A stretch of DNA of 20,000 nucleotides from an uncultured virus (IMG/VR IMGVR_UViG_2724679368_000003) (lineage: Duplodnaviria > Heunggongvirae > Uroviricota > Caudoviricetes), in IMG/VR virus record IMGVR_UViG_2724679368_000003; one strand, written 5' to 3'. Under the pieces are notes generated by a model. The model worked only from the letters and a program-made list of their open reading frames with translations, was not told the DNA's origin and did not search any database. The stretch's first letter is position 1; each line of letters opens with the position of its first letter. The position numbers were made by a program, and so were the translations under genes. Of the stretch, positions 3,550 to 9,635 are shown piece after piece.

Positions 3550-3649
3550 ACCCAAACGCCCCGGCGAGGGCGGCACGCGAGCTAAGTCAGGATATTTTTT
3601 ACCCCGGCAAAGCCAGCGTCCACCGCCCGTTTATTTTGCGAGTGTCAGC

Positions 3650-4141
3650 ATGGAAATCGTCATCAATACCAATCAGACAGCAGGGGCACCAGAACCGCAG
3701 GAGCCAACGGAAAAAGCCGTTATAAAAAATGATGGTTTCTGGCCGGATATCGACCTGAATCAGTACCGCGAAGAGTCACGGCAGGACGGCACCATCACCC
3801 AGCCGCGCGTTATTGAGGCGGCGCTGTTTGCCATCAATGAAACCAATGATCGGTTATCTGTCTGGCGCTTAACCCAGCAAAAACAAGGTTACATGACGGC
3901 GGCTGAGGTGCCAGCGGAAAAACTGAATGAGGAAAGTACCCGTATTCAGTTGTACCGCACGGCGGTGTTTTGCCTGATGCAAGCCCGTTTAACTGATCGT
4001 TTTCGTGGCTTTGATACCACCGCTACCGGCGGGAAGCGGGCCGATTCACTGGAACCCACTATTGATAATTTGCGCCGTGATGCTGCCTGGGCAATTAACG
4101 ATATTCAGGCCATCAACCGCATGACAGTGGAATTGATTTAA
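3650..4141 (+). CDS. L: Head completion/stabilization protein (gpL)
   Basis: IKNDGFWPDIDL..YR...YRTAVFC...RGFDTT..G...LRRDAAWAI...VELI. Confidence 0.92.
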   Translation: MEIVINTNQTAGAPEPQEPTEKAVIKNDGFWPDIDLNQYREESRQDGTITQPRVIEAALFAINETNDRLSVWRLTQQKQGYMTAAEVPAEKLNEESTRIQLYRTAVFCLMQARLTDRFRGFDTTATGGKRADSLEPTIDNLRRDAAWAINDIQAINRMTVELI

Positions 4142-4344
4142 TGCGCATTCTGGCCCAGCAGTACGACACCCTTGATGCCATGTGTTGGCGCTACTACGGC
4201 CGCACTGAGGGCGTGACTGAAAAAGTGCTGGCAGCTAATCCGGGGTTAGCGGATATCGGGCCAGTGTTACCGCACGGTTTTCCGGTGGAAATGCCGGAAG
4301 TCAGAGCCGCCACAACGACGCAAACCCTGCAACTTTGGGACTAA
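4141..4344 (+). CDS. X: Tail protein X (LysM-like)
   Basis: AQQYDTLDAMCWRYYGRTEGVTEKVLAANPGLA...LQLWD; TAATG overlap with L. Confidence 0.95.
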   Translation: MRILAQQYDTLDAMCWRYYGRTEGVTEKVLAANPGLADIGPVLPHGFPVEMPEVRAATTTQTLQLWD

Positions 4345-4351
4345 TTGCACA

Positions 4352-4383
4352 ATTCCCCACAGGGGGTAACGGACATGAAAATG
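4352..4383 (+). promoter_or_regulatory. Lambda-like sdi hairpin/SD with Met-Lys-Met dual start
   Basis: TTCCCC-ACA-GGGGG hairpin sequesters the SD and is followed by TAACGGAC-ATG-AAA-ATG, the same architecture as the lambda S translation initiation region. Confidence 0.75.
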
Positions 4384-4761
4384 CCAGAAAAAGATCCAAG
4401 TTGGGTGGGGGTGGTACTGGCCTTTTATTCTACCCATTCAACCGTGATAAACGGCTTTCTCGTCGCCTTTATTGTGGCGTTTCGCCGCGTAGTGTGGGGC
4501 GGCGGTAAGTTGCGTGAGGGCATTGGCGAGGGGGTGGTGTGTGGGCTGGTCGGCGTCAATATCGGCCCGGTAATTTCCCCGATGCTAATCCACCTGATTG
4601 ATGCCACTCCCTGGCTAAATGGCGCGTTAACCGAAGTTGCCGCCGGGAAAGTGGAGATATTTGTCAGTTGTCTTATCGGGCTGATCGGCTTGCAGACCAT
4701 CCGCGAGCTGGTATTTAAAATTGTTAACAAAAAGACGGGAACCACTGATGCCAAGCAATAA
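4375..4761 (+). CDS. Holin, lambda S-like (class I), with dual start (antiholin from 4375, holin from 4381)
   Basis: MKMPEK N-terminus identical to lambda S107; three hydrophobic segments; basic C-terminus (KIVNKKTG). Confidence 0.88.
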   Translation: MKMPEKDPSWVGVVLAFYSTHSTVINGFLVAFIVAFRRVVWGGGKLREGIGEGVVCGLVGVNIGPVISPMLIHLIDATPWLNGALTEVAAGKVEIFVSCLIGLIGLQTIRELVFKIVNKKTGTTDAKQ

Positions 4762-5143
4762 ATTTATTTTCGGCAAAACCAGCGAAACCAATCTGATCGG
4801 CGTGCATCCTGATTTGGTGAAAGTGGTGCGCCGCGCGCTGGAATTGACCCCGATTGATTTTAAAGTGATCGAGGGCCGCCGCACAATCGAGCGCCAACGT
4901 GAGCTGGTCAAAGCTGGAGCCAGCCAAACCCTGAACAGCCGCCATTTAACCGGTCATGCGGTCGATATTGTGCCGCTGCCGGACGGCAAGGTCAGCTGGG
5001 AATGGAAATATTTCTATCCAATGGCTGACGCGATGAAACAGGCCGCCGCCGAGTTGGGGATCGCCGTGGAGTGGGGCGGTAACTGGACAACCTTTAAAGA
5101 CGGCCCGCATTTTCAATTGCCCGCCCGTCAATATCCGGGCTGA
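4748..5143 (+). CDS. Endolysin, M15-family (L-Ala-D-Glu) Zn peptidase
   Basis: GVHPDL...EGRRT..RQ..L...SRHLTGHAVD...WGGNW...DGPHFQL (SxHxxGxAxD and late His Zn ligands); ATG at 4748 overlaps the holin end. Confidence 0.9.
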   Translation: MPSNKFIFGKTSETNLIGVHPDLVKVVRRALELTPIDFKVIEGRRTIERQRELVKAGASQTLNSRHLTGHAVDIVPLPDGKVSWEWKYFYPMADAMKQAAAELGIAVEWGGNWTTFKDGPHFQLPARQYPG

Positions 5144-5147
5144 CACC

Positions 5148-5573
5148 ATGCCAATCTTCAACACCGCTCCGCTCGCATGGGCGATTGCCGCCGCCTTACT
5201 GCTTGCCGGTGGCGTGCAAACCTACCGCTTGTCTGAGGCTCGGCAAGTAGTGATTGACCAGCAAGCGGCCGAGACAGTCAGTAAAAACGGCCAACTTATT
5301 GCCCTGGCACTGACCGCCAACGCCAACAATCAGGCACAGGCGCAATTACGCCAGCAGGTTGCCAGTACCGATCAGTTGTTGGCGCAGCGCAATAGCCAAA
5401 TCAAGAGGTTATACCGTGAAAATGAAATCTTACGCCGCTGGGCTGATACTCCCTTGCCTGATGATATTATCCGGCTGCGCCAGCGACCTGCCTTTACCGG
5501 GGCCGCAGATTACCGTCAATGGCTGTCCGCGAGTCACGCCTTGCCAATTCCCGGCAGCGGAACCGCAAACTAA
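5148..5573 (+). CDS. lysB: Inner-membrane spanin, LysB/Rz-like
   Basis: N-terminal TM, Q/A-rich coiled coil, ENEILRRWADTPLPDDIIRL motif. Confidence 0.88.
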   Translation: MPIFNTAPLAWAIAAALLLAGGVQTYRLSEARQVVIDQQAAETVSKNGQLIALALTANANNQAQAQLRQQVASTDQLLAQRNSQIKRLYRENEILRRWADTPLPDDIIRLRQRPAFTGAADYRQWLSASHALPIPGSGTAN

Positions 5574-5685
5574 CAGTGACTTAAACGACGATATCGACCA
5601 GTTGGAAGCGGCTTTACACGCTTGCGCGGCGCAGGTAGATACGGTGCTGGCTTGCCAGCAAGGGGCGGCCAATGTTAAAGCCTGA
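5416..5685 (+). CDS. lysC: Outer-membrane spanin lipoprotein, LysC/Rz1-like (start GTG 5416 or ATG 5422)
   Basis: Signal peptide with lipobox LSGC; CPRVTPCQFP...TNSDL...LEAALHACAAQVD..LACQ; overlaps lysB in another frame; GAGG SD at 5405-5408. Confidence 0.85.
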   Translation: MKMKSYAAGLILPCLMILSGCASDLPLPGPQITVNGCPRVTPCQFPAAEPQTNSDLNDDIDQLEAALHACAAQVDTVLACQQGAANVKA

Positions 5686-6139
5686 TTCGCTACGCACCGC
5701 CATTTTAAAGGCGGTGCCGTATATCAAGCAAAACCCGGACTGCTTGCATGTGTTTATTGATAAAGGGGCGATTATTGCCACGCTGGCCCCGTCACTCTCT
5801 TTTGAGTATCAGTACACCTTAAATCTGGTGGTGACTGATTACGCCAGTGATATGGATCTGGTCATTGTCCCGATTTTGCATTGGTTGCGCACTCATCAGC
5901 CCGATATTATGGCAAACCCCGACAAACGCCAGGACAGTTTTACTTTTGAAGTTGATTATCTGGATAATAAAGTGCGCGATATCAGCATTGATATCAAACT
6001 CACCGAACGGGTGATCGTGAAAGAACAAGATGGCAAATTAGACGTTAACCATCTTGGGGAGCCGGTGCCGCCGGAGCATTTTATCAACAGCTATAAGATT
6101 GATATTGAGGGTAAAACTGTTGCGGAGTGGACACAGTGA
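5672..6139 (+). CDS. R: Tail completion protein (gpR)
   Basis: MLKPDSLR...NPDCLHVFIDKG...SLSFEYQYTLNL...WLRTHQPD...LTERVIV. Confidence 0.93.
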   Translation: MLKPDSLRTAILKAVPYIKQNPDCLHVFIDKGAIIATLAPSLSFEYQYTLNLVVTDYASDMDLVIVPILHWLRTHQPDIMANPDKRQDSFTFEVDYLDNKVRDISIDIKLTERVIVKEQDGKLDVNHLGEPVPPEHFINSYKIDIEGKTVAEWTQ

Positions 6140-6582
6140 ATGACCTGCATGAGTTAGACCAAACCTTATCAATTTTACTGGCGCAATTATCCCCACAGGC
6201 GCGTGGTGCGTTTATGCATCAGGTATCCAAACAACTACGCCAGCGCCAGCAAAAGCACATCCAGGCACAACAAAACCCAGACGGCTCACCCTTTGTGCCA
6301 CGCAAGAAAAAACGCCGCGATAAGCAAGGCCGCATCAAACGCAAGATGTTTACCAAACTGCGCACCGCCCGCTTTATTAAAAGCGAGTCCAACGCCGATG
6401 AAGCCGCCGTTACATTCAGTGGCAAGGTCAATAATCTGGTGCGGGTACATCACTACGGCTTGCGCGATAAAGTCAGTCGCAACGGGCCAACGGTGAAATA
6501 TGAACGCCGCCAGTTGCTAGGCTTTACTGACGGCGATAGTGAATGGATTGGGGATCTGGCGTTGGAATACATCGCCAAATAG
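6136..6582 (+). CDS. S: Tail completion / virion morphogenesis protein (gpS)
   Basis: QQNPDGSPFVPRK...MFTKLR...RVHHYG...YERRQLLGF; likely GTG start at 6136 (GTGA overlap with the R stop, GGAG SD 8 nt upstream). Confidence 0.92.
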   Translation: MNDLHELDQTLSILLAQLSPQARGAFMHQVSKQLRQRQQKHIQAQQNPDGSPFVPRKKKRRDKQGRIKRKMFTKLRTARFIKSESNADEAAVTFSGKVNNLVRVHHYGLRDKVSRNGPTVKYERRQLLGFTDGDSEWIGDLALEYIAK

Positions 6583-6597
6583 TTATTCCTGTCTAAG

Positions 6598-6837
6598 TTA
6601 TTTATCTTTTCTTATTAAATGAAAAATCACTTTTGTCATTAGATATGAAAGAAAAAGAGCAAGAATAGCCATTTCATAATAGAGCGCTATCAGGATATTC
6701 GTATTAAGAAAGTTAAAATAACTTATCGCATTGCCAAACTGATCGCTTGACAATACCAACACCAGAACCTCTGGAATAAGAAAGGTCAAGATAACAAATA
6801 AAGTAAGAAAAGTCCCAAATTTAGCCAGTCGCATCAT
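6598..6837 (-). CDS. Hypothetical 79-aa membrane protein (2 predicted TM helices), accessory locus
   Basis: Two long hydrophobic segments, basic C-terminus (IRKDK), GGAG SD upstream, AT-rich. Confidence 0.7.
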   Translation of the reverse strand: MMRLAKFGTFLTLFVILTFLIPEVLVLVLSSDQFGNAISYFNFLNTNILIALYYEMAILALFLSYLMTKVIFHLIRKDK

Positions 6838-6916
6838 ACAACTCCATTGTAGTATTTAAAATCCATAATTATAACGTATAGTACACAATTATTGACAATC
6901 AATGGAGTGCTAGTTA

Positions 6917-7618
6917 ATGAATGCTTCTTTTTATTTAAAAGAAAAACTAAAGGCAGATAGAGAGTTATCGCTATCGTTAGAGCGCGGGATAAAAGGAGCT
7001 GTGAGTTCTGCCAAAGGAACGATCAGGAATGTATATAGTGGTGCTGAAAGAGCCAGTTGGTATACATCCTGTTTCTTTGAAAAATATGCGAGAGAATGTC
7101 AGGAAATAAAAGCTGAGGATGCAAGAATAATAAAAGCAATATCAGAGGTATACAGAAGATCTGATGTTATCTTTGACATGATAAAGCTTTATGTCGAATA
7201 TGTTCTTGATAGGTACACACCGCGTGAAAACATGCAGAATTCCGCTTATCAGTCAACCCATTTAGCTGCTAATCTCTCAGTTTCAATAACCACTAAAAAA
7301 GCCATGGCTTACTCTATAGCTAAAACAGTTGCGGAGTCATTCTCTGTATCCAATATTGTACGGGCAGAAATAAACAAAAAAGGTTTGTTTTTAATTAATG
7401 CCGCTGATTTATATGGGAAAGTTCAAAAATCCGCTATGGCGGCCAGAAAGCTGCAAGTGATTGACCCGGAATATTATAATTTATTACGAATCAATAATAT
7501 AGAAATGCTTTACGTATATATAGAACCAGTTGTTTCTAAAGCAATGGAGAAAATACGTTCCAACTCTAATTTAAGCTTTGATGAAATTGTGGATATACTT
7601 AACGGCATGGGAAGGTAA
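6917..7618 (+). CDS. Hypothetical 233-aa protein of unknown function, accessory locus
   Basis: Long AT-rich ORF with GGAG SD at 6904-6907; no catalytic motif recognised. Confidence 0.85.
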   Translation: MNASFYLKEKLKADRELSLSLERGIKGAVSSAKGTIRNVYSGAERASWYTSCFFEKYARECQEIKAEDARIIKAISEVYRRSDVIFDMIKLYVEYVLDRYTPRENMQNSAYQSTHLAANLSVSITTKKAMAYSIAKTVAESFSVSNIVRAEINKKGLFLINAADLYGKVQKSAMAARKLQVIDPEYYNLLRINNIEMLYVYIEPVVSKAMEKIRSNSNLSFDEIVDILNGMGR

Positions 7619-7791
7619 TGAAAAATATATTGTGTAACATATTATTTTCAACGATTCCATTTGTGGTTATTATCATATGTTCAATCTGTTATTTGATATT
7701 TTTTCCTGATCACTTTGGAAAACTCACATTAGCAACCATCGTGATAGTGTTCTTGGTGTCTTGCAAACTAATGCCGAATAAATACATTTGA
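7618..7791 (+). CDS. Hypothetical 57-aa membrane peptide (2 predicted TM helices), not in the ORF track
   Basis: TAATG stop/start overlap with the 233-aa ORF. MKNILCNILFSTIPFVVIIICSICYLIFFPDHFGKLTLATIVIVFLVSCKLMPNKYI*. GGAAGG SD-like sequence upstream. Confidence 0.75.
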   Translation: MKNILCNILFSTIPFVVIIICSICYLIFFPDHFGKLTLATIVIVFLVSCKLMPNKYI

Positions 7792-7866
7792 AATAACATC
7801 AATGAGGCGGCTGTTTTCAGTCACCCTATAACCATTCCTTTCTCTATGGTTGACCTTAATTCCCCT

Positions 7867-7946
7867 ACTGGCTAACCATTAAATAAGAGCGCCGCCAGTT
7901 ATTGCACTTTACTGACGGCGATAGCGAATGGATTGAAGAACTGATG
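7867..7946 (+). pseudogene. Relic duplicate of the gpS 3' end
   Basis: 7881-7935 matches 6496-6550 at 47/55 nt by manual alignment. Translates K*ERRQLLHFTDGDSEWIEELM versus gpS KYERRQLLGFTDGDSEWIGDLA. Confidence 0.9.
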
Positions 7947-7966
7947 TATTGCTATGCCACACTAAA

Positions 7967-8257
7967 TCACAGCATTCCATGTGTTTTAGCGTAATCGCGC
8001 AACGCTTCATTCATCTTAGTTTGCCACCCGTCACCCTGCGCCCGATAGGCGTCCACCACATCGTGATCAATCCGTAACTTAACTGGCTCTTTCGGATTTG
8101 CCAGTTTTGGCCGACCACGGGTTTTTATCACCTTTTCCGCGCCCTCTTTCCCAAACAACTCGGTAAATACCTCGGTGGCTGGACGTGCGCGGGCAAACTC
8201 TGCCTCGCCCCACTCAGGGTTATCGGTTATGGTGACTTTACTGATTTTTTTGTTCAT
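7967..8257 (-). CDS. brnA: BrnA-family antitoxin (type II TA, C-terminal RHH)
   Basis: DNPEW...RGRPK...K..VKLRIDHDVVDAYRAQGDGWQTKMNEALR signature. Confidence 0.9.
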   Translation of the reverse strand: MNKKISKVTITDNPEWGEAEFARARPATEVFTELFGKEGAEKVIKTRGRPKLANPKEPVKLRIDHDVVDAYRAQGDGWQTKMNEALRDYAKTHGML

Positions 8258-8510
8258 ATCGCTTTACCTCACGGGAATTGGCCTTACGCAAGCTGATAAC
8301 ATGCACCTTGCCGTTACGTGGTGTGAATACCAACATATGTAACCGCTCTTCAATGTAGCCCAGTGCCTGAAAGCGCCGCTCTGGATATTCCTTACGTAGA
8401 TCCTCAACAATTAGCGCGGTAGCAACTTCGAAATCACGCGCCATCTCAAAGGACAGTTTACGTTCAGCAATATTTTTTTCGTTTTTGGTTGGGTCGTAAG
8501 ATATGTCCAT
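8238..8510 (-). CDS. brnT: BrnT-family ribonuclease toxin (RelE-like fold)
   Basis: YDPTKNEKNIAERKLSFE...EDLRKEYPERRFQALG...VFTPR...ISLRKANSREVKRY; toxin-first order overlapping brnA. Confidence 0.9.
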   Translation of the reverse strand: MDISYDPTKNEKNIAERKLSFEMARDFEVATALIVEDLRKEYPERRFQALGYIEERLHMLVFTPRNGKVHVISLRKANSREVKRYEQKNQ

Positions 8511-8546
8511 ATAATTAATGTACCCCCAATAAATACATCAATGCAA
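8511..8546 (-). promoter_or_regulatory. Putative sigma70 promoter and operator of brnTA
   Basis: Minus strand reads TTGCAT (8546-8541), 18 nt, TACATT (8522-8517), 6 nt, then ATG. Inverted repeat ATGTA...TACAT (8518-8538) overlaps the promoter. Confidence 0.6.
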
Positions 8547-8582
8547 GAGATATTAGCATTCATGCTTTAGTTTCATTTCCTT

Positions 8583-8646
8583 TGTGCCATCCCTCACACA
8601 AAACCCATCACATGCCGCGCGCGCCCGTAGGCGGCACACTGGCCGC
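8583..8646 (+). promoter_or_regulatory. Late promoter pV with Ogr site
   Basis: TGT-GCCATCCCTCAC-ACA (8583-8600); -10-like CACACT at 8635-8640, 6 nt before the V ATG. Confidence 0.85.
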
Positions 8647-9282
8647 ATGAATATCCTTATTGCTGGCCTTAAACGCCTGTTGGCTAACATTATCCGCATT
8701 GGCATCGTCTCAGACGTCGATCTTGCTAACGGATTGTGCCGGGTCAAAATTGGCAACCTTGAAACCGATTGGCTCAATTGGTTAACGCTACGCGCCGGTC
8801 GGGTGCGTTTTTGGTCTGCGCCGTCCAAAGGTGAACAAGTCATGGTGCTGAGTATCGGCGGTGAACTCACCACCGGCTTTGTGCTGCCCGCCATTTTTTC
8901 TGATGCTCATTCCGCGCCGTCACAATCGGCTGATGCCATGGTGATCACTTTTCCTGATGGTGCGCGTTTTGAGTATGAGCCGGAAACCAGTCACCTGGCT
9001 GTCACCGGCATAGCCACGGCGGTGATTGAAGCCAGTGAATCAGTCAATGTGACCGCGCCCAATATCACTTGTACCGCATCAGTCAAAATCACGCTGGATA
9101 CGCCAGAAGTGGAATGTACCAACAACCTAACCACCGCCACGCTGGATGTGACCCAAAGCGGCAAGATGAGCGGCAATATCACGCATACCGGCGGTAAATT
9201 TTCATCTAATGGCGTGGTGGTTGATAACCATAATCACGGCGGCGTGCAGCGCGGCGGAAGCTGGACTGAGGGGGTTAAATGA
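8647..9282 (+). CDS. V: Baseplate spike (gpV)
   Basis: LANIIRIGIV...TDWLNW..RAG....WSAPS.GEQV...FPDGA..EY...C-terminal HxH (HNH) metal-binding motif; start ATG 8647. Confidence 0.94.
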   Translation: MNILIAGLKRLLANIIRIGIVSDVDLANGLCRVKIGNLETDWLNWLTLRAGRVRFWSAPSKGEQVMVLSIGGELTTGFVLPAIFSDAHSAPSQSADAMVITFPDGARFEYEPETSHLAVTGIATAVIEASESVNVTAPNITCTASVKITLDTPEVECTNNLTTATLDVTQSGKMSGNITHTGGKFSSNGVVVDNHNHGGVQRGGSWTEGVK

Positions 9283-9635
9283 CAAGCTATAAATATATCG
9301 GTATGAACCGCAACAGCGGTTTAAACATCGGAGATATTGACCATATTCGCCAGTCAATCAGTGACATTCTGACCACGCCGCAAGGCTCGCGAGTGATGCG
9401 CCGTGATTATGGCTCCTTACTATCAACCCTAATCGACCAGCCACAAAATCCCGCTCTGCATCTAAAAATGATGGCCGCTGTCTATGGTGCGGTAATGCGA
9501 TGGGAACCGCGCGTGACGCTGAATGCCATCAGTATCACCACTCAAATTGACGGTAAGATGATGGTGGATTTAACCGGTAGCCGTACCGACAGCGATAGCC
9601 GGTTGAGTTTGGTCGTGCCACTAGGAGGCCAATAA
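9279..9635 (+). CDS. W: Baseplate wedge protein (gpW, gp25-like)
   Basis: HIRQSISDILTTPQGSRVMRRDYGS...RWEPRV. Confidence 0.94.
   Translation: MTSYKYIGMNRNSGLNIGDIDHIRQSISDILTTPQGSRVMRRDYGSLLSTLIDQPQNPALHLKMMAAVYGAVMRWEPRVTLNAISITTQIDGKMMVDLTGSRTDSDSRLSLVVPLGGQ

Follow-up and report, generated by a model that had tools for sequence, protein, structure and literature searches.

The window analysed here is a stretch of 20,000 nucleotides (nt) from an uncultured virus of the Caudoviricetes (IMG/VR record IMGVR_UViG_2724679368_000003) and forms part of a 33.9-kb P2-like provirus record. Between gpS and gpV it carries three open reading frames (ORFs), here called p79, p233 and p57, which a first-pass annotation made from the letters alone had singled out as an unassigned AT-rich cassette in an accessory slot. 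Our ORF calls and the Pfam matches of the flanking genes agree with that layout (Table 1). The block is also AT-rich as described, with a G+C content of 33.9% over positions 6583-7888, compared with 51.3% in gpS, 54.2% in gpV and 50.4% in the whole window.

The finer details of the annotation were confirmed as well. The stop codon of p233 and the start codon of p57 have one base in common (ggTAATGaaa), as expected of translational coupling, and GGAG is found upstream of the p233 and p79 starts. Hydropathy analysis (Kyte-Doolittle, 19-residue windows) gave two hydrophobic segments each for p57 and p79 and none for p233 (maximum 0.84), which also has no signal-peptide-like N-terminus. All three genes are under purifying selection: in pairwise comparisons among four diverged cassette variants, the ratio of nonsynonymous to synonymous substitution rates (Ka/Ks) was 0.09-0.19 for p79, 0.10-0.18 for p233 and 0.07-0.16 for p57, so all three are real coding genes and not chance ORFs. 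The divergent 79-bp region between p79 and p233 presumably contains the cassette promoters. Promoter-like hexamers lie there at 6855-6882 on the plus strand and at 6860-6833 and 6917-6888 on the minus strand, but the promoter and terminator scan did not rise above the shuffled expectation (7 promoter-like sites against 6.8 expected); Rfam gave no match at an expectation value (E) of 0.1 or below over positions 5500-9500.

Table 1 Features of the gpS-gpV region of the window, and cargo found in the same slot of related proviruses (aa, amino acids; TM, transmembrane)
Sequence	Feature	Position	Strand	Description
Window	gpR	5672-6139		Pfam
Window	gpS	6127-6582		Pfam Phage_tail_S, E 2e-31
Window	p79	6598-6837	-	79-aa ORF, two hydrophobic segments, divergent from p233
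Window	Divergent intergenic region p79/p233	6838-6916	.	79 bp, AT-rich, contains both GGAG Shine-Dalgarno sites
Window	p233	6917-7618	+	233-aa ORF; 26.5 kDa, isoelectric point 9.2, soluble, all-alpha
Window	p57	7618-7791	+	57-aa two-TM ORF, translationally coupled to p233
Window	Remnant of gpS 3' end	7875-7955	+	Residues 122-148, 70% amino-acid identity, by tblastn and DNA alignment
Window	BrnT (90 aa) / BrnA (96 aa) pair	7967-8510	-	Pfam E 1.5e-21 and 3.6e-26
Window	gpV	8584-9282		Pfam Phage_spike, Phage_base_V, Apex
L167	hcp cassette	4954-6299	-	Also in L143, L164, L168, L171, L176, L179, L210, L211
L169	Other slot cargo	3624-6328	-	Fatty-acid desaturase and acyl-CoA-oxidase-like protein, 3051-nt insert
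L141	Other slot cargo	4950-6575	-	541-aa HD-domain protein
L005	Other slot cargo	3845-4444	-	199-aa protein, hydrophobic N-terminus, no Pfam family

The p233 family and its relationship to Ssp6-like effectors

Pfam, NCBIfam and PADLOC contained no credible family for p233, p57 or p79, in agreement with the first reading of the sequence. With PADLOC-DB 2.0, p233 gave a partial match of 17 bits to MTase_II (E 8.6e-4) and a match to Cas4 at E 0.053, and p57 and p79 were unmatched, whereas PHROGs placed two of the three proteins in families of unknown function (phrog_26461, E 4e-102; phrog_37330, E 3e-38). A word-based search recovered 13 relatives of p233, mostly from Yersinia, and a profile search of 1.84 billion representatives at 50% identity recovered 253 relatives at E<=1e-3 and 66 at E<=1e-30, nearly all of the 253 being ~230 aa long. 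A scan of species-representative genomes confirmed 65 p233-family loci across Enterobacterales, with several paralogues per genome. A Pfam match was absent in all 67 diverse members scanned, and the most conserved feature of the N-terminal part is the motif G-x-E-R-x-S-W-Y-x-S-C ... Y-x-D-V-C. Neither megablast of the cassette against phage and Escherichia coli genome collections nor tblastn of p233 against the phage collection gave a match; near-window records were possibly excluded from these collections, so these results are no evidence of absence. Three loci (L044, L048 and L078) lie on contigs of metagenome-assembled genomes labelled Bacillota, Acinetobacter and Clostridium, yet are near-identical to Enterobacter or Erwinia loci (tree branches 0-0.04); they are probably mis-binned enterobacterial DNA rather than signs of wide transfer.

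The structure of p233 was modelled with AlphaFold2 (AF2) from 67 sequences. The model is all-alpha, with ten helices and no strand (predicted local distance difference test 81.8, predicted template modelling score 0.72); an earlier model from only 10 sequences was discarded as too poor (predicted local distance difference test 51.9). No relative of known structure was found: a sequence search of the PDB with the p233 profile A1 gave no match at E<=10, Foldseek of the model against the PDB gave none at E<=1e-3, and an exhaustive structural scan (VIA-align wide) gave a best Z of 6.3, which is noise level for helical models. In the ESM Atlas, p233 matched its own unnamed clusters only.

These properties recall Ssp6 of Serratia marcescens Db10, which is described as a cation-selective pore former delivered through a type VI secretion system (T6SS); it is predicted to be alpha-helical, with no structural homologue, acts from the periplasm and shows only mild toxicity in the cytoplasm (Mariano et al. 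2019, Nat Commun, PMC6889166). That an all-alpha p233 is without a solved relative agrees with this description (PMC6889166). The same source reports Ssp6-like proteins from Enterobacteriaceae only, often beside orphan hcp genes, and places the Ssp6 gene itself away from T6SS genes (PMC6889166). Homologues of Ssp6 are listed in the T6SS1 secretome of Pantoea agglomerans (preprint 10.64898/2026.08.01.741415).

Profile comparisons connected p233 to this group. The p233-family profile (A2) also picked up, weakly (E 1e-23 to 2e-7), proteins of ~215 aa, each of whose genes is followed by an overlapping 67-79-aa two-TM ORF and in one case additionally by hcp. When A2 was compared by hhalign with an alignment of eight ~215-aa Ssp6-like proteins (A3), the two matched with a probability of 99.2% (E 8.7e-20) over 158 columns, and a hidden Markov model (HMM) of A3 matched the prophage p233 directly (E 2.9e-14, for the identical protein in L180). 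The A3 relatives include P0171, which is the 218-aa BZ17_951 of Y. pseudotuberculosis IP 32953, and its length agrees with the sole IP32953 entry in Supplementary Data 1 of the Ssp6 study (657 nt, HMMER score 141; PMC6889166); this protein alone matched A2 with a probability of 97.1% (E 6.4e-11). They also include a 215-aa S. marcescens protein (P0203), ssp6 being listed as 648 nt (PMC6889166). Fifteen of the 95 entries in the published list have low scores of 20-36 bits and, at 687-735 nt, the length of p233-family genes, and the lengths of low-scoring entries match p233-family loci for Erwinia tasmaniensis and Pectobacterium carotovorum (PMC6889166). The prophage copy of p233 in IP32953, BZ17_631, is missing from the published Ssp6-like list (PMC6889166). 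Judged by these profiles, p233 is a divergent member, in a ~230-aa branch, of the Ssp6-like superfamily of T6SS pore-forming effectors.

p57, p79 and hcp at p233-family loci

The immunity protein Sip6 is encoded by a 204-bp ORF with two transmembrane helices that overlaps ssp6 by 4 nt, and it protects by direct binding to Ssp6; Mariano et al. refrained from analysing how such small immunity ORFs are related (PMC6889166). The surroundings of p233-family genes were examined in two sets of loci. In the first, all ORFs were called in 61 loci (L029-L089), 46 of which have an intact homologue of at least 200 aa; the second also took in loci from 105 Yersiniaceae and Pectobacterium genomes and, with identical proteins and weak ~215-aa matches removed, amounted to 93 distinct loci. 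A two-TM ORF of 58-77 aa lies directly downstream of the effector gene at 39 of the 46 intact non-Yersinia loci, mostly with an overlap of 4 or 8 nt. An HMM of 43 such downstream ORFs, none of them from Yersinia prophages, matched p57 (E 2.9e-14, 42.8 bits), with no match to p79 or to other TM ORFs. The p57 family is represented by alignment A6; against the two-TM ORFs behind six ~215-aa genes, which encode very short peptides, the p57-type HMM gave no match (E 0.2-9.5). We regard p57 as likely to be the cognate immunity protein of p233. At one Pantoea locus (L036:6708-7503), three p57-like ORFs stand in tandem downstream of the effector, an arrangement that looks like an array of orphan immunity genes.

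A 159-aa gene, identified as hcp by its Pfam T6SS_HCP match in two examples (E 4e-28 and 1.5e-16), was present within 600 nt at 34 of the 46 intact loci and within 900 nt at 60 of the 93 distinct loci. Since the loci are rich in hcp and their downstream ORFs match p57, p233 and p57 have the appearance of an effector-immunity pair associated with hcp. T6SS components are themselves encoded in two cassette-carrying Yersinia genomes, with 9 and 4 Hcp matches and 7 and 2 TssC/VipB matches. Of the two functions put forward in the first-pass annotation, that of a membrane-targeting toxin with cognate immunity peptide(s) is thus supported in kind, the enrichment at T6SS loci proposed as a check having turned out positive (hcp at 60 of 93). 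The other, a defence or exclusion system in which a sensor acts with a membrane effector, as in abortive infection, found no backing: PADLOC gave nothing credible, and the relatives sit beside hcp, not in defence islands.

Relatives of p79 were found by word-based search in Yersinia only (25 clusters, at least 74% identity). An iterative HMM search over 6137 small ORFs from all fetched loci added twelve further p79-like ORFs and nothing else, the first link being made at E 2.5e-4, and every p79-like ORF recovered sits divergently upstream of a p233-family gene. The family (alignment A5) consists of a first TM segment ending in an invariant Glu (E23), an amphipathic stretch, a second TM segment and a basic tail; all scores for p79 in the ESM Atlas were below 0.9. 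The possibility that p79 is itself an immunity protein of the p57 type was ruled out by the HMM (E 3.7).

A p79-like gene is present at 13 of the 93 distinct loci. Twelve of these 13 also have a small two-TM ORF, the exception having a broken effector. At L031, L057, L062, L066, L069 and L080 this p57-like gene stands directly behind the p79-like gene in the divergent operon, a layout repeated at L114, where the upstream TM ORF is missed by the p79 HMM; at L098, L118, L119, L124 and L082 a two-TM ORF of 58-62 aa follows the effector. Inside 900 nt, hcp was found at none of the 13 p79-type loci, compared with 60 of the 80 loci that are without a p79-like gene. A quick tree built from 73 effectors sets the prophage clade well apart and requires only 2-3 changes of the p79 label, so the mutual exclusion of hcp and p79 reflects few independent events. 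The p79 family is a new, undescribed element that travels with hcp-unlinked members of the p233 branch. Its product would most likely contribute to immunity in a second or auxiliary role, or act with p57 as a membrane partner.

That p79 and hcp never occur at one locus would also fit a replacement of the T6SS link by p79. The cassette would then be a self-contained, T6SS-independent membrane module serving the phage's own ends (superinfection exclusion, abortive infection or lysis modulation), in which p79 opens a way for p233 to reach the membrane or periplasm from within the cell and p57 restrains p233. The six chromosomal p79-type loci speak for such a module, being small islets in housekeeping surroundings, where a scan of 35 neighbouring proteins turned up no T6SS or phage genes, as does the position of the cassette in a variable P2-like cargo slot with BrnT/BrnA adjoining. 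In a more general form, p79 may mark an Ssp6-like toxin branch freed from hcp and the T6SS, composed of a depolarising toxin, a two-TM inhibitor and a membrane-access protein; if so, the phage could use it for superinfection exclusion, for abortive infection or for killing cured or non-lysogenic kin, with swaps via the repeated 3' end of gene S. We consider both the module and its generalisation unlikely. The p233 family is overall hcp-linked and homologous to T6SS effectors, and sister prophages carry an hcp-linked relative in the very same slot. The absence of hcp is not unusual for the Ssp6-like family, because Ssp6 is also encoded away from T6SS genes (PMC6889166). The exclusivity of hcp and p79 is, moreover, phylogenetically clustered, and PADLOC offers only the partial methyltransferase-model match of 17 bits.

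Cargo of the S-V slot in related proviruses

In phage P2, lysogenic-conversion genes occupy fixed variable loci, as exemplified by old, tin, Z/fun and orf30. We surveyed 80 proviruses with gpS relatives, 71 of which had both S and V on the locus. The S-V gap among these 71 ranged from 22 to 3051 nt: 28 were near-empty (<200 nt), 13 held the trio of p79, p233 and p57 (4 of them together with BrnTA), 9 held BrnTA alone and 9 an hcp cassette, the remainder carrying other cargo (examples in Table 1). The counts are not independent events, because the hosts are close relatives of one another and some of the proviruses were already in the earlier set. The S-V interval is a variable cargo slot, empty in some proviruses and differently filled in others.

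The hcp cassette of the nine sister proviruses lies on the minus strand and consists of hcp (Pfam E 3.4e-23), a ~218-aa Ssp6-like gene and a 71-aa TM ORF, so that an Hcp travels on the phage with its effector and putative immunity gene. Compared with A3 by hhalign, the ~218-aa protein matched with a probability of 99.8% (E 3.5e-29). On the strength of these profile matches, the phage slot holds now one, now the other of two branches of a single T6SS effector superfamily.

The p233 gene is present in 23 IMG/VR proviral loci and is accompanied by p57 in all 23. It is accompanied by p79 in 19 of them, the four misses being two loci truncated at their ends and two in which p233 has an internal deletion. 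Six of the 23 copies of p233 are broken, four by frame breaks and two by internal deletions, and p57 was detected in every case. This imbalance raises the alternative that the cassette is defensive only, with p57 (perhaps with p79) guarding the lysogen against the same type of T6SS effector fired by neighbours and p233 carried as a decaying passenger. Between the window and loci L003, L004 and L008, p57 is 100% identical and p233 86%, so the two genes are separately exchangeable, which such a reading would welcome. It is nonetheless a poor candidate, less probable than a T6SS-independent module: p233 is intact in 17 of the 23, purifying selection acts on the intact copies (Ka/Ks 0.10-0.18), even those diverged to 74% identity, and the two loci with an internally deleted p233 have lost p79 too.

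The first-pass annotation had overlooked two further features of the slot, the BrnT/BrnA pair and a remnant of the gpS end. The remnant, whose coordinates were converted from L001 2459-2539, sits between p57 and BrnTA as a direct repeat of 6485-6575; directly repeated copies of the gpS end thus flank the AT-rich cassette, whose right boundary as an insert is given by the remnant. Where BrnTA is absent from a provirus (for example L005:4580-4639), a comparable gpS remnant lies upstream of p79. The repeated ends suggest a swapping of cassettes through recombination at the S end. In the comparison of the window with L003, L004 and L008, BrnTA is 100% identical like p57, p233 being 86% identical, so recombination breakpoints must also lie inside the cassette. 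In one provirus (L013:1-5700) the intact trio is preceded by a pair of p79 copies together with additional partial p233 fragments; these are tandem remnants of earlier cassettes.

With a genuine type II toxin-antitoxin pair, BrnTA, adjoining the cassette, and with a toxin and a small protective partner in tandem on a mobile element, the trio could itself be taken for an addiction module that kills cells losing the prophage. We hold this to be very improbable, and the least probable of the alternatives weighed here. Ssp6 acts from the periplasm and is only mildly toxic from the cytoplasm (PMC6889166), p233 has neither a signal peptide nor a hydrophobic segment, and the predicted immunity protein resides in the membrane as an integral peptide, unlike a labile cytoplasmic antitoxin.

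Interpretation and comparison with known systems

Taken together, the homology of p233, the order of the genes, the hcp linkage in relatives, the purifying selection on all three genes, the T6SS genes of two host genomes and the T6SS cassette in the sister slot make it probable, in our judgement, that the cassette is a case of lysogenic conversion that adds an Ssp6-like pore-forming T6SS effector, p233, together with its membrane immunity peptide, p57. By analogy with Ssp6, p233 would be loaded on the host T6SS, probably via an Hcp, and shot into the periplasm of bacteria nearby, where it would insert in the inner membrane of the target and form ion-selective pores that depolarise and arrest the cell. 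Like Sip6 with Ssp6, p57 would shield the lysogen and its kin, probably by direct binding, and p79 may play an auxiliary part in the membrane, perhaps as a further immunity protein.

Several observations weigh against this interpretation. The sequence of Ssp6 itself lay outside the comparison, the link running through the ~215-aa group A3, and A3 is tied to the published list by BZ17_951, matched by strain name, length and locus-tag order only, and by a Serratia protein of Ssp6 length. The homology to the ~215-aa group spans only ~160 C-terminal residues, that is, the C-terminal two thirds, and in the hhalign comparison of A2 with A3 the N-terminal motif of the p233 family has no counterpart in that group. 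No similarity in sequence was detected between p57 and the two-TM ORFs behind the ~215-aa genes, with which it has architecture and position alone in common. The S-V slot of the window holds no hcp or other T6SS gene, and since none of the 13 p79-type loci has hcp, the cassette belongs to the branch without direct T6SS linkage. The broken p233 genes in 6 of 23 proviral copies point in the same direction.

As for novelty, the annotation had proposed an undescribed system, a proposal that a match to an already characterised family was to overturn. Such a match was found for two of the three genes, because p233 and p57 are Ssp6- and Sip6-like, p233 by profile and p57 by position and architecture (PMC6889166); p79, for its part, is undescribed. 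No paper describing a prophage-borne Ssp6-like cassette was found in the open-access papers searched, and in these the ~230-aa branch as a defined group, the carriage of this branch and of the hcp cassette in a P2-like S-V slot, and the p79 family appear to be undescribed. The Ssp6-like family is here widened to a ~230-aa branch (253 representative clusters) that is unnamed in current domain libraries, and p79 could give a pore-forming toxin a second immunity protein, a rare arrangement. Should the interpretation be correct, temperate P2-like phages in Yersinia bring along T6SS ammunition, placed in one fixed slot of the tail operon, either as a complete hcp-effector-immunity set or as the trio. 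Lysogeny would then change which neighbours a bacterium kills and which attacks it survives, and would provide a direct, phage-mediated route for spreading interbacterial weapons and the matching immunities.

Among known systems, the closest counterpart is Ssp6/Sip6. Ssp6 and p233 are both small proteins (~215-235 aa), soluble and alpha-helical, in which no domain can be recognised and which have no structural relative among solved proteins, and in both systems a tiny two-TM ORF lies directly downstream, with stop and start overlapping. Both families are confined to Enterobacterales, with several paralogues per genome at variable, horizontally acquired sites and frequent linkage to orphan hcp genes. 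The p233 branch differs from Ssp6 in being longer (~230 aa), in having its own conserved N-terminal motif and in scoring weakly, if at all, with the published Ssp6 HMM; the p233 locus lies inside the tail operon of a P2-like prophage, p57 is without detectable similarity in sequence to the predicted immunity ORFs behind the ~215-aa genes, and p79 adds a third conserved membrane protein that is undescribed for Ssp6 loci.

A second Serratia system, Ssp4/Sip4, is found alongside Ssp6 and is described as a pore former that the T6SS delivers, non-lytic and selective for cations, whose immunity protein is integral to the membrane (Reglinski et al. 2025, EMBO J, PMC12669606), the latter paralleling p57. 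Ssp4 has 13 helices, a beta-sheet and predicted TM helices, and Sip4 has four TM helices (PMC12669606). An Ssp4-type identity for p233 was ruled out by architecture, p233 having ten helices, no strand, no hydrophobic segment and two-TM partners when set against the published description of Ssp4 (PMC12669606).

The sister hcp cassette (for example in L167) shares with the trio its phage lineage (gpS 81-93% identical), its slot, the effector superfamily and a small TM ORF, but has its own hcp, a ~218-aa effector of the type of Ssp6 proper and minus-strand orientation, and has no p79-like gene. The cargo loci of P2 resemble the trio in being AT-rich, self-promoted inserts at a fixed junction of the late operon, with an occupancy that varies among related phages. 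In contrast to the anti-phage cargo of P2, the trio is predicted to deliver an interbacterial weapon together with its immunity.

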